14,936 nucleotides of DNA from Patescibacteria group bacterium. Lineage in GTDB: Bacteria; Patescibacteriota; Minisyncoccia; JAHIHE01; JAGLIN01. The notes beneath the pieces are model-generated. The model searched no databases and was not told the DNA's origin. It worked only from the letters and a program-made list of their open reading frames with translations. The DNA lies in NCBI GenBank assembly GCA_034660995.1, contig JAYEKL010000055.1, positions 1 to 14,936 on the forward strand, in the 5' to 3' direction. Each line of letters begins with the position of its first letter. Position 1 is the first letter of the stretch. The position numbers and the translations under genes were made by a program. This document shows positions 5,622-14,559 of the stretch, piece by piece.

Positions 5622-5708
5622 GTTATAAAAAGTGTTCTTCTACGCCCTAAATATATAAAACCACTAATTTTAATTATATTATATCACAAAACAAAATAAA
5701 GGCAAAAT

Positions 5709-5757
5709 CATATTAACATATTAACATACTAACATTTTAACATATTAACATGCTAAA
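5709..5757. repeat. 8-bp tandem repeat array (ATATTAAC-like units, ~6 copies); left part
   Basis: CATATTAACATATTAACATACTAACATTTTAACATATTAACATGCTAA. The same unit resumes at 5959-5997 on the far side of the inserted element. Confidence 0.8.
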
Positions 5758-5758
5758 T

Positions 5759-5962
5759 AGGGGCTGGTGATTTTTAAGAAAATCAACAGGGCCTAAGTAT
5801 AATATTGTTCGACTTTATGGAGAACTATTGCGTGAAATAATGTTCTGTGCGTATTACTTCTCCACAAGATCGAAAAATATTAAGTGTGATGCTTAATACT
5901 TAATACTTAGACACACCCCCAACCCCCTCTCTAGAGGGGAACTATAAGAAAATCAGCAGATT
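5759..5962. mobile_element. MITE-like element A (~204 bp), family 3, with terminal inverted repeats GGCTGGTGATTTTTAAGAAAAT / ATAAGAAAATCAGCAGATTC; it carries a family-1 hairpin inside
   Basis: The terminal inverted repeats are visible directly. The interior 5808-5874 is a family-1 hairpin (CGACTTTATGGAGAA…TTCTCCACAAGATCG). The right half matches, in reverse orientation, element B at 13331-13450 (TCTGCTGATTTTCTTATARTTCCCCTCTAGAGAG…GGTGTGT). Confidence 0.65.
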
Positions 5963-5997
5963 CTAACATCTTAACATTCTAACATATTAACATTTTT
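5959..5997. repeat. 8-bp tandem repeat array, right part (TCTAACAT CTTAACAT TCTAACAT ATTAACAT)
   Basis: Same 8-bp unit as at 5709-5757. The array is split by element A. Confidence 0.75.
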
Positions 5998-8366: not shown

Positions 8367-8485
8367 GTTGGCTCCATAGTCCCGATAGGGCTGTGGAGCC
8401 TATTGTGATTTCAAACTTTATGAAAAGAGATTTAAAAAAATCCTGCATTTAGGCTCCACAGCTCTAAAGAGACTATGGAGCCAAC
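8367..8485. mobile_element. Family-2 palindromic MITE-like element (~119 bp), intergenic copy
   Basis: The perfect 15-bp terminal inverted repeats GTTGGCTCCATAGTC / GACTATGGAGCCAAC are joined by an inner stem GGGCTGTGGAGCC / GGCTCCACAGCTC. A homologous 81-bp copy lies inside rsmA at 9143-9223. Confidence 0.7.
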
Positions 8486-8513
8486 AGAACACATAACATC
8501 CCGCTTAATATTC

Positions 8514-8549
8514 TTCAACCTTGTGGAGAAGTTTATACGCATAGAACAT
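8514..8549. repeat. Half copy of the family-1 element (TTCAACCTTGTGGAGAAGTTTATACGCATAGAACAT), immediately 3' of rsmA
   Basis: Its reverse complement ATGTTCTATGCGTATAAACTTCTCCACAAGGTTGAA aligns with 5842-5877 of element A. Confidence 0.6.
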
Positions 8550-8555
8550 CATTTT

Positions 8556-9476
8556 TTAGTCTCTTAACAAAATAGCCAGCTTCTTCCATTCCTCTAAGCT
8601 CAATTCTTGCGCGCGAGCATTTAGACTTATTCCTGTTTTTGAAAGAAGTTCCTCGCTTTGTGTTTTTTCAATATGCAAACCAGCAGAAAGATTATTTACT
8701 AATTTTTTGCGCTTTGCTGAAAAACCAATTTTTATAATTTTAAATAAGTCTTTTGTAGAAACACAACTAATTGCGTTTTTGTCTGAAACCGTGCTTCTAT
8801 GAATATTTTTTATCTTTAAAATCGCAGAATCAACTTTCGGTTCAGGATAAAATGATGATTTATCAACATAATCAGTAATTTCAGGCTCGCCATAAACTTG
8901 CACGCTAAGAGCGAGAACACTTAGTTTTCCTGGCTTAGCGCATATTCTTTCCGCAACCTCTTTTTGCATAAGCAAAACGATAAACTCTGGTTGAGCATCA
9001 CTTTCTAAAAACATTTTTATTATCGGCGAAGTTATATAATAGGGGATATTAGAAACAAGCTTGTATCTCTCGTTAACAGAATATTTTTTTATAAATTCTT
9101 TTAATTTGATTTTTAAAATATCATCATTTATAACTTCAATATGTTGGCTCCATAGTCCCGTTAGGACTGTGGAGTCGCTTTGCGCAAAATGCTCCACAGG
9201 CCTATCGGGACTATGGAGCAAACGACTTTTTAACAACTCTGCTAATTTTTTATCTTTTTCAATCGCAATAACTTTACCGCATTTTTTTGAAAGCTCTTCT
9301 GTTAAAGTTCCAAATCCAGGACCAATCTCAAAAACAATATCTTCTTTTTTCAAATCAGAAACTTCAACAATTCTTTGAAGAACTGTCTCATCAATTAAAA
9401 AATTCTGTCCCAAACTTTTGAGAATTTTTAGATCTTCCTGTTTTAATATTTTTTTTATCTCTTCTTTGTTTAACAT
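8556..9476 (-). CDS. rsmA: 16S rRNA (adenine1518/1519-N6)-dimethyltransferase RsmA/KsgA, with a 27-aa in-frame insertion
   Basis: Motifs present: GQNFLID, FEIGPGFGTLTEEL (SAM-binding), IEKDKKL, SNIPYYITSPII, LMQKEVAERI, FYPEPKVDSAIL, FSAKRKKL. The segment LLHSPDRPVEHFAQSDSTVLTGLWSQ (aa 86-111, within the 27-codon in-frame insertion spanning codons 85-112) is absent from canonical KsgA and is encoded by a palindromic repeat. Confidence 0.9.
   Translation of the reverse strand: MLNKEEIKKILKQEDLKILKSLGQNFLIDETVLQRIVEVSDLKKEDIVFEIGPGFGTLTEELSKKCGKVIAIEKDKKLAELLKSRLLHSPDRPVEHFAQSDSTVLTGLWSQHIEVINDDILKIKLKEFIKKYSVNERYKLVSNIPYYITSPIIKMFLESDAQPEFIVLLMQKEVAERICAKPGKLSVLALSVQVYGEPEITDYVDKSSFYPEPKVDSAILKIKNIHRSTVSDKNAISCVSTKDLFKIIKIGFSAKRKKLVNNLSAGLHIEKTQSEELLSKTGISLNARAQELSLEEWKKLAILLRD
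9143..9223. mobile_element. Family-2 palindromic element (81 bp = 27 codons) inserted in-frame within rsmA
   Basis: GTTGGCTCCATAGTCCCGTTAGGACTGTGGAG…CTCCACAGGCCTATCGGGACTATGGAGCAAAC. The arms are near-perfect reverse complements and share their ends with the intergenic copy at 8367-8485. Confidence 0.7.
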
Positions 9477-13238: not shown

Positions 13239-13330
13239 AATTTATAATATAAAAAAATTAGAAAGTTTAAACTTTAATTATGTATTACAAGAATATTCAT
13301 CCTGCAAGAATGTTACAAGTTATTAATTAG

Positions 13331-13450
13331 GCTCTGCTGATTTTCTTATAATTCTCCTCTAGAGAGAGTGTTGGAGGTGTGTTGAAAAACTTATTACACA
13401 CCCCTTACACCTCTCAAGAGGGGAATAATCGGTAAAAAATCACCAGTCCC
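13331..13450. mobile_element. MITE-like element B (~120 bp), family 3
   Basis: Ends GCTCTGCTGATTTTCTTATAATTC… and …GGTAAAAAATCACCAGTCCC are inverted relative to each other and homologous to both ends of element A at 5759-5962. The interior is palindromic (GTGTAAGGGGTGTGT / ACACACCTCCAACAC). Confidence 0.65.
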
Positions 13451-13468: not shown

Positions 13469-13542
13469 GGGCTCGTAGCTCAGTTGGTTAGAGCGCTACC
13501 TCGACACGGTAGAGGTCAGAAGTTCGAATCTTCTCGGGCCCA
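13469..13542 (+). tRNA. tRNA-Val (anticodon GAC)
   Basis: Manual cloverleaf fold: acceptor GGGCTCG/CGGGCCC (one G:U pair), D-stem GCTC/GAGC, anticodon stem CTACC/GGTAG, loop TCGACAC, T-stem AGAAG/CTTCT, T-loop TTCGAAT, discriminator A. The 3' CCA is not fully encoded (the genome reads CCC). Confidence 0.88.
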
Positions 13543-13578
13543 CCCAGTTTCAAATTTTACATGATTGTTTAATTATTG

Positions 13579-13610
13579 TCTGCTGATTTTCTTATAATTC
13601 CCCTCTTGAG
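13579..13610. repeat. Solo family-3 element end (TCTGCTGATTTTCTTATAATTCCCCTCTTGAG), in direct orientation with 13333-13366 on the other side of tRNA-Val
   Basis: About 30 of 32 bp match the left end of element B. No partner inverted repeat is found downstream. Confidence 0.6.
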
Positions 13611-14040: not shown

Positions 14041-14559
14041 TTAAGCCTCTTTATTTAATTTCTTTTCAAATCTGTAAAAAATGGCTCTCGGAGTAAAAAG
14101 AGAAGCCCAACATTTTTTTACATTTTCCAAAAGTGTATCTTTTGTTGTATTCAAAAAACTGTCTAATTGTCCCGCCCAAGTAGCAGAAGCAGAATCTTCT
14201 GATGTTGCAGAAGAACGAACAGCAACAAATTTAGAATCTAGGTTTTTATGAAATTTTAAAATTTCTGTTTTAATATCTTCAGGCATTTCTTTAGAAAGAA
14301 TTATGCCTTCAATTTTCTCAGAAGCATTTTCAACAGTATGAACTTCTTTTATATCAACCGTATTTAAAACAGTGTCAATTTCAACATTTAGATCCGTCTC
14401 TACTAAAAACCTATCAAAAACATTTGAAAGAATTACAAAACCATTAGGAACAGGAATTCCTGCTTGAGTCATTTCCACAAGAGAAGCACCCTTGCCTCCA
14501 GCAATCTCAGTATTTGCTTTGAATATTTGATTAAAATTTTTGATCAAAATTTCAGCCAT
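14041..14559 (-). pseudogene. Fragment encoding only the N-terminal (PPDK_N) domain of a PEP-utilising enzyme (PEP synthase / pyruvate phosphate dikinase family); probably a truncated remnant
   Basis: GGKGASLVEMTQAGIPVPNGF, VAVRSSATSEDSASATWAGQ and CWASLFTPRAIFYR align with the first ~170 residues of PpsA. The ORF stops where full-length enzymes continue for ~600 more residues. No continuation exists in any frame downstream. Confidence 0.55.

Follow-up and report, generated by a model that had tools for sequence, protein, structure and literature searches.

The window analysed here is a DNA stretch of 14,936 nucleotides from a Patescibacteria group bacterium (contig JAYEKL010000055.1, assembly GCA_034660995.1). 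It carries on its minus strand the rRNA methyltransferase gene rsmA (ksgA), which is interrupted in frame by a palindromic element of 81 nt, and a longer sibling of this element lies in the adjacent intergenic region. Here we present a description of the element, its family, its insertion site and the transposase associated with it in related genomes. The 81-bp element is probably a non-autonomous mobile doublet of repetitive extragenic palindromic (REP) sequences, of the kind known as REPINs (REP doublets forming hairpins) or bacterial interspersed mosaic elements (BIMEs). It would belong to the system of a REP-associated tyrosine transposase (RAYT) and be translated as a loop of RsmA. The features are as follows.

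9143-9223, no strand: REP doublet (REPIN/BIME-like), in frame in rsmA; recognized by its palindrome, its folding and a left junction (AAAAGTC|) that is the same as in the filled allele L001 described below
9143-9176, plus strand: left REP with head GTTG and hairpin GCTCCATAG-T-CCC-GTTA-GGA-CTGTGGAG; exact half-site at 9147-9174, consensus of 73 copies
9177-9189, no strand: spacer of 13 nt, GCTTTGCGCAAAA; further short doublets of this family have TTTGYGCAAAA-like spacers
9190-9223, minus strand: right REP, inverted, with the minus-strand head GTTT, one mismatch from GTTG; exact half-site at 9192-9219
8556-9476, minus strand: rsmA/ksgA, 306 aa, with all family-invariant residues present; Pfam RrnaAD, 1.6e-51
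8367-8485, no strand: intergenic REP doublet with a spacer of 51 nt, between rsmA and the downstream Band_7 gene; REPs at 8367-8400 (plus) and 8452-8485 (minus)

Anatomy of the element and its family

The rsmA element (GTTGGCTCCATAGTCCCGTTAGGACTGTGGAG-TCGCTTTGCGCAAAATG-CTCCACAGGCCTATCGGGACTATGGAGCAAAC) is a palindrome with arms of 32 nt that are 91% complementary and separated by 17 nt. The DNA folds with -32.9 kcal/mol (z = -11.6; 0 of 200 shuffles as good) and the sense RNA with -53.2 kcal/mol (z = -12.1). The element extends from the second base of codon 85 to the first base of codon 112 and comprises 26 complete codons with the peptide LLHSPDRPVEHFAQSDSTVLTGLWSQ. The reading frame 8556-9476 stays open across all 81 nt, as the original prediction had stated. 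The intergenic sibling measures 119 nt and folds with -37.8 kcal/mol (z = -10.9). Identical ends had been predicted for the two copies; these are shared indeed, apart from a mismatch at one terminus of the rsmA copy (GTTTG versus GTTGG). The exact half-site GCTCCATAGTC-N9-CTGTGGAG is found four times in the window, with 0.00 expected by chance, and each element contains two of these sites, facing inward. A comparison with Rfam delivered no match for the rsmA copy and, for the intergenic copy, only generic microRNA-precursor (long-hairpin) models, all below threshold. A repeat of the CRISPR type was considered and rejected: the copies are dispersed, single or in inverted pairs, with no array reported and no Rfam match at threshold.

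The window and related genomes together supplied 73 non-redundant copies, from which a consensus was derived. The pattern used for their collection fixed most of the lower stem, leaving the head, the upper stem and the loop as the only free observations. The head is GCTG (29 copies) or GTTG (28 copies) in 57 of the 73 copies, GTAG occurs in none, and a pyrimidine precedes the head in 61. Its variant depends on the genome, with GTTG in the window and mostly GCTG in the metagenome-assembled genome (MAG) JAGLOZ01. The lower stem of 9 bp, GCTCCATAG/CTGTGGAGC, contains one T·G wobble, and on the opposite strand this pair turns into a C·A mismatch. The lower stem is followed by an upper stem of 3 bp, paired in 64 of the 73 copies, and a variable tetraloop. 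The upper stem shows compensatory variants (CCC/GGG in 48 copies, CTC/GAG in 7, CCA/TGG in 2, CCG/CGG in 2 and GGC/GCC in 1), and a bulged T in the REP stem is probable.

With a hairpin of 29 nt and a head of 4 nt, the unit is a short imperfect palindrome as required of REP sequences. Because each arm is itself a hairpin, the 81-nt element consists of two inverted REP-like hairpins around a 13-nt spacer, which is the layout of two inverted REPs described for REPINs and BIMEs (PMC3337134). The sibling at 8367-8485 has the same arrangement, and 26 doublets of the family were counted across the window and related loci.

Distribution of the repeat and the associated transposase

The distribution was scanned with the exact pattern in one genome per species (GTDB representatives). 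The same REP was found in 68 stretches from about 25 MAGs, most of which carry Patescibacteria labels (Paceibacterota, Parcubacteria, Moraniibacteriota, Magasanikbacteria, Falkowbacteria and Saccharibacteria). The repeat family anticipated from the window alone thus comprises dozens of copies in related genomes besides the intergenic sibling, many of them doublets and many solo. Pieces of 8 kb adjacent to these REPs were taken from the related MAGs and are designated L followed by three digits.

In five MAGs (L045, L030, L047, L068 and L033) the REPs lie beside an open reading frame (ORF) of 180-188 aa. Three of them show a transposase gene flanked by inverted copies of the same REP, the arrangement known as a REPtron. 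In L045 a 180-aa ORF is enclosed by two inverted REPs 640 nt apart, in L030 a 181-aa ORF by two complete REP doublets, and in L033 the gene at 779-1321 lies between REPs at 713-755 and 1333-1376. One flanking REP was seen at the transposase ORF in each of L047 and L068. The ORFs of L045, L030, L047 and L068 match Pfam Y1_Tnp and score 100-108 bits on the NCBIfam equivalog NF047646, 'REP-associated tyrosine transposase' (cut-off 80). The best match of the L045 protein in the PDB is E. coli TnpA-REP (4ER8), with the motifs NHVH (the HUH histidines) and YIYxNP (the tyrosine) aligned. The product of L033 shares 79% identity with the L030 protein and has a precomputed Pfam match to Y1_Tnp. At E <= 1e-10 the number of its relatives is 582, and identity is 60% or more for each of the 120 listed. 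Many of these bear Patescibacteria labels; NCBI names them 'transposase', and for several JGI has the name 'RayT'. L033 originates from JAGLOZ01, which is also the home of an insert-bearing rsmA (L003/L031). Among its REP-adjacent pieces this MAG has at least 10 REP loci, one of which holds the RAYT gene.

Short arrays with a period of 8 nt accompany some of these loci. They were seen in the window at 5706-5751 (TAACATNT) and 5956-5993, and in L033 at 659-694 and 1380-1413, where they are inverted around the REP-RAYT-REP unit (GTGTAACG). Comparable arrays occur beside REPs in L038, L042, L050, L057 and L059.

The same REP was also observed in MAGs labelled Nitrospinia and Gammaproteobacteria, namely JAJDAS01 (L006, L014, L053, L059, L060, L069), CAYHWE01 (L036, L063, L065) and CAZEYK01 (L047). 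The GC content of these loci is 37-48%, and the RAYT of L047 is 78% identical to one from Patescibacteria. Mis-binning, mislabelling or horizontal spread could account for these occurrences. A viral scan delivered seven matches, all in one conserved phage gene; they have no GYTG head, no RAYT and no REP context and are therefore regarded as chance matches.

The insertion site in rsmA and REPs in other genes

The RsmA of the window is 100% identical to a protein at NCBI labelled as from a Patescibacteria MAG. KsgA/RsmA is universally conserved and dispensable in E. coli, and calling the gene essential, as was done at the outset, overstated the case. An AlphaFold model computed from 37 orthologues has a mean pLDDT (predicted local distance difference test) of 81 and matches KsgA structures, ribosome-bound ones included. 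Values below 50 are confined to residues 89-109, which belong to the insert, and 229-236. In the model the insert lies between a helix (76-87) and a strand (113-117) and is predicted to form a disordered loop, which agrees with the surface loop expected originally. Judged from the topology of the class I methyltransferase (Rossmann) fold, this loop would lie at the N-terminal end of strand beta3, opposite the S-adenosylmethionine pocket; its distance from this pocket and from the 30S interface is likewise estimated from topology. Residues 87-110 of the query (24 residues) face three residues in B. subtilis KsgA, and the solved KsgA structures lack the segment, as had been claimed for canonical KsgA.

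Three loci syntenic with the window were compared: L001 (protein P0002, 78% aa identity) is filled, whereas L074 (P0005) and L004 (P0008) are empty. The filled junction of L001 reads AAAAGTC|GCTGG...81 nt...CCAGC|GCGTAAAAAAT, the empty junction of L074 AAAAGTC|GCATAAAAAAC, and the difference between them is exactly 81 nt. Neither this filled/empty pair nor the two copies of the window show a target-site duplication. The left junction of the window agrees with that of L001, but 9 nt are absent to the right of the element. Relative to the closest empty orthologue the window thus gains 72 nt net (24 aa), and the insert, rightly seen at the outset, replaces a short native loop rather than being purely added to the protein. 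Precise excision from the rsmA of the window would join AAAAGTC directly to ATATTGAAG. The filled P0002 allele is present in three separate assemblies and is thus not an artefact. In L073 (P0011) the right REP and the right flank match L001, and a GTAG-headed hairpin, GTAGAGACGCGATTAATCACGTCTCTAC, stands in place of the left REP. Two metagenome scans, one with the left flank in rsmA and one with the filled junction, delivered no matches.

The rsmA DNA of the window shares 82% identity with L001 and 86-88% with the empty alleles, so that the closest orthologues are those that lack the insert; the element itself is 85% identical between the window and L001. In a rough neighbor-joining tree the empty alleles P0003-P0010 are sister to the window, within a clade that has the filled P0002 as its outer member. 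This is compatible with a single old insertion followed by precise in-frame losses and equally with repeated insertion at the same nucleotide. Both scenarios fit a Y1 enzyme, since site-specific integration and precise excision are known for such enzymes.

Among 110 RsmA orthologues the loop has 15 aa in 22 and reaches up to 77 aa. In other lineages it contains inserts from GTAGAGACGC...GCGTCTCTAC hairpins (VETRLI.., ETQHCCVST), from a related solo REP (GSTGLKPQWSQ) and from CCCCC..GGGGG hairpins (PPDKGGLGG); a further insert, KATFANVAF, was read as a palindrome solely from its back-translation. Beyond rsmA, the collected loci likewise contain the GTAG-headed and CCCCC..GGGGG types. One loop of RsmA thus serves as a common landing site, in different lineages, of several hairpin-like inserts, two of which are confirmed as repeats outside the gene.

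Two further sites in the protein carry inserts. A degraded, hairpin-derived one lies at window positions 8748-8798 on the minus strand (aa 227-243, RSTVSDKNAISCVSTKD) and coincides with the one further segment for which the AlphaFold model gives pLDDT values below 50. The corresponding position of L001 is occupied by a GTAG-headed palindrome (GTAGAGACGCGATT...AATCGCGTTTCTAC); L073 lacks it and L004 is shorter here. A third site is found in P0101 and P0102 (alignment columns about 270-310), where about 43 aa follow KKYSSD; the peptide resembles a translated palindrome (SSPRRSLSAEDC...QSSAERLQRG).

The family occupies other coding sequences as well. Half-sites were regarded as lying in a long frame if this was stop-free with at least 40 codons on either side. 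This applies to 21 of 72 exact half-sites (about 29%), 16 of them in Pfam-supported genes, so that neither the rsmA copy nor these half-sites have the extragenic location characteristic of REP systems. Outside rsmA there are 12 Pfam-supported host genes. They comprise two Mur ligases, MurB, BacA/UppP, PheT, a MiaB-like enzyme, YbeY, a GT1 glycosyltransferase, NlpC/P60, a transporter of the major facilitator superfamily (MFS), two Wzy_C proteins and one intein-bearing protein. For four more half-sites (L019, L025, L049 and L059) the frame either has no match in Pfam or is of insufficient length for a judgement. Doublet lengths are divisible by three in 6 of 8 cases in Pfam-supported hosts (two of the eight being in rsmA) versus 5 of 16 intergenic doublets, an excess expected if intragenic copies are translated and filtered by selection. 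The same REP peptides appear in unrelated proteins. In L051 an in-frame doublet (2869-2959) lies in a protein with an intein/Hint domain, which brings two kinds of selfish insert together in one gene.

Several other repeats were noted in the window. A second hairpin family (CCCC..CTCTnnAGAGGGG) occurs at 5911-5966, 13327-13382, 13401-13436 and 13569-13610, with copies on both sides of tRNA-Val (13469-13544). In related MAGs its motif is nested in REP doublets within MFS, UppP, MurB and MiaB-like genes. A third family (CTTAATATTCTTCAACCTTGTGGAGAAGT) is present at 1863-1931, 5799-5885 and 8497-8532; two of these sites are inverted pairs, and the solo copy lies 11 nt from the intergenic REP doublet. 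A perfect direct repeat of 109 nt (1-109 and 1155-1263) has one copy at the start of the contig and is either a real duplication around a TraC-like gene and small ORFs or an assembly end effect. The ORF at 14041-14559 (minus strand, 172 aa) covers only the first half of PPDK_N (profile positions 2-163 of 328) and may be a gene fragment.

Interpretation and comparison with known systems

According to the explanation that we favor, a single-stranded REP would expose a strand-specific hairpin with the GYTG head, the T·G wobble in its lower stem and a probable bulged T. Such a hairpin would be the kind of substrate recognized by a RAYT (TnpA-REP), an HUH/Y1 enzyme, as encoded in related Patescibacteria genomes between copies of the same REP. 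By analogy with TnpA-REP and IS200/IS605, the doublet would have been cut and pasted into rsmA as single-stranded DNA with no target-site duplication, and the RAYT would be the enzyme that moves it. The asymmetry of the strands (T·G against C·A) and the missing target duplication lend indirect support to cleavage of single-stranded REPs in a strand-specific manner. Survival of the insertion would have been favored by a length of 81 nt (3 x 27), by a REP consensus with no stop codon in five of six reading frames, and by a landing site in the loop that leads from the helix following methyltransferase motif II into strand beta3. Length, open frames and loop position together suggest that the element is translated as a disordered surface loop of about 26 aa. 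RsmA presumably stays active, and the insert would be neutral.

Several points weigh against this explanation. The 5' GT[AG]G tag of REP systems is replaced by the conserved 4-nt head GYTG at the equivalent position, and GTAG is crucial for E. coli TnpA-REP (PMC8266576). There is no RAYT gene in the 14.9-kb window, the cognate enzyme having been shown in relatives only. Each arm of the rsmA copy deviates by about 9% from the family consensus, a drift by which it may be an old copy that no longer moves. That the insert is translated and the predicted protein active is deduced from sequence, and the mobility of this REP family, with transposition, excision and cleavage, is proposed by analogy.

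The closest competitor, itself unlikely, is an orphan palindrome of the type of the Rickettsia palindromic elements (RPEs), with no dedicated transposase, spread in the past or by recombination and associated with the RAYT by coincidence. Its in-frame behavior in housekeeping genes equals that reported for RPEs (PMC3733652), the window lacks a RAYT and the rsmA copy looks aged; yet the same REP stands beside a RAYT gene in five MAGs, with the REPtron layout seen in three of them, and the CGTC repeats, reported with no flanking transposase, differ from the GYTG-headed family described here. Slightly less credible still is co-option, by which selection would have kept the insert for a lineage-specific function of the RsmA loop or for an mRNA hairpin (-53 kcal/mol) regulating rsmA. 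The palindrome is still strongly foldable, lineages with about 82% identity in rsmA DNA retain a similar insert at one and the same position, and the identity of the element (85%) is not below that of the gene. Against co-option, the closest orthologues (86-88% DNA identity) are entirely free of the insert, the same loop carries unrelated inserts in other lineages, the segment is predicted to be disordered and the same peptides turn up in unrelated proteins.

The small size, inverted termini and many dispersed copies recall a classical miniature inverted-repeat transposable element, a deletion derivative of an insertion sequence (IS) with a DDE transposase and terminal inverted repeats. We regard this as very improbable, as no target-site duplication accompanies the filled/empty pair or the window copies, each 'terminal repeat' is a conserved hairpin with covariation, solo REPs are common, and the sole gene found between inverted copies is the Y1/RAYT gene. 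Scarcely any weight is likewise given to removal or skipping of the 81 nt before the mature protein (as by an intron- or intein-like process or translational bypass) or to an assembly artefact, for which a very stable hairpin within an ORF might speak. No Rfam family scored above threshold, the 26 aa contain no intein motifs, and the insert is a stop-free multiple of three, as expected if translated. Divisible-by-three lengths are moreover enriched in intragenic doublets, and three independent assemblies contain the filled allele. Apart from this, a segment of similar length conserved at the protein level in relatives that lack the palindrome was not found among the orthologues, and the element neither is restricted to rsmA nor fails to fold as a hairpin.

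The mobile-doublet explanation can be extended to a more far-reaching and rather doubtful proposal: REP hairpin repeats would contribute in a major way, and to this day, to the variation of protein length in Patescibacteria, with the RAYT reinserting them at specific sites in coding sequences or precisely excising them. Owing to scarce intergenic space, roughly a quarter to a third of the RAYT-linked copies would lie in frame in genes, many of them core genes. That one nucleotide position carries an insert in lineages apart from each other but not in those nested between them would then reflect a reversible, enzyme-driven gain and loss of peptide loops.

For annotation, the consequence would be that in these Patescibacteria genes many differences in length that lack an explanation, many loops of low confidence and many peptides that recur (WLHSPDRAVEP, GSTALKGLWSQR) are translated REP hairpins and not lineage-specific domains. 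For the study of mobile elements, a GYTG family in genomes of about 1 Mb, with filled and empty alleles of one site, opens insertion specificity and precise excision to testing. For protein evolution, peptide insertion of the Rickettsia kind becomes tied to an identifiable enzyme.

To our knowledge, REP-RAYT systems have been treated as extragenic and studied almost only in Proteobacteria. Within a reduced genome, the RPEs reportedly sit in frame inside housekeeping genes (Ogata et al., 2000, as cited in PMC3733652). The likeness to RPEs drawn in the original prediction holds for the behavior, namely in-frame insertion into functional ORFs that adds a peptide segment and keeps the fold, but not for the family: the element is a REP doublet, and in relatives a cognate RAYT gene is flanked by the same REPs. 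RPE-4 and RPE-6 have CGTC ends and no associated transposase, and CGTC-tagged RPEs are characterized by a stem of 8-9 bp and a loop of 4-5 nt (PMC3733652). In the present family the stem has 9 + 3 bp, one wobble and probably a bulge, and the CGTC tag is replaced by GYTG; a comparison by eye revealed no resemblance to the RPE tag. The hosts of RPEs are alpha-proteobacteria. A cognate RAYT accompanies the family described here.

IS200/IS605 elements (IS608) transpose as single strands by 'peel and paste'. They share the enzyme superfamily, the lack of target duplication and subterminal hairpins with an unpaired or mismatched base as recognition elements (PMC8266576). They differ in that the element described here has no gene of its own, the RAYT being a chromosomal gene flanked by REPs, and the only target regularity observed here is the pyrimidine in front of the head. 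Precise excision is a known property of IS200/IS605.

The closest resemblance is to REP/BIME/REPIN sequences and their RAYT (TnpA-REP) Y1 transposases (Nunvar 2010, PMC2817692; Bertels and Rainey 2011, PMC3116915 and PMC3337134; Ton-Hoang 2012, PMC3333891; Corneloup 2021, PMC8266576). TnpA-REP recognizes single-stranded REPs strand-specifically by the head tetranucleotide and by irregularities of the stem (PMC8266576). Common features are an imperfect palindrome of about 30 nt, a 4-nt head conserved at the base of the stem, an asymmetry of the strands due to G·T pairs or a bulge, an inverted pair of REPs forming a larger hairpin, a gene for an HUH/Y protein of about 180 aa that lies in a REPtron and passes the NCBI RAYT model, the lack of target duplication and many dispersed copies. 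The family differs by its head, GYTG instead of GT[AG]G, by its Patescibacteria hosts, and by about 29% of copies in open frames, most in Pfam-supported genes, as opposed to an extragenic location. A literature search delivered no paper tying RAYT or REPIN to Patescibacteria, and a phylogenomic survey of Y1 enzymes from 2018 does not mention this group.

REPs within genes were described by Di Nocera, De Gregorio and Rocco in 2013, who reported singles and dimers of GTAG and CGTC REPs wholly within ORFs of known proteins, including intragenic dimers of 20-30 aa, interpreted them as tolerated in loops and linkers, and found RAYT genes flanked by the GTAG class (PMC3733652). REP insertions within RAYT genes are also known from the literature. 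Those intragenic REPs belong to another sequence family, tag and phylum and are enriched in replication and repair genes, whereas the hosts described here are mostly genes for the cell envelope, translation and rRNA maturation. Intragenic REPs themselves are thus known; new are the GYTG-headed family, its host group, the large share of its copies within genes and the hotspot in RsmA that receives several repeat families.

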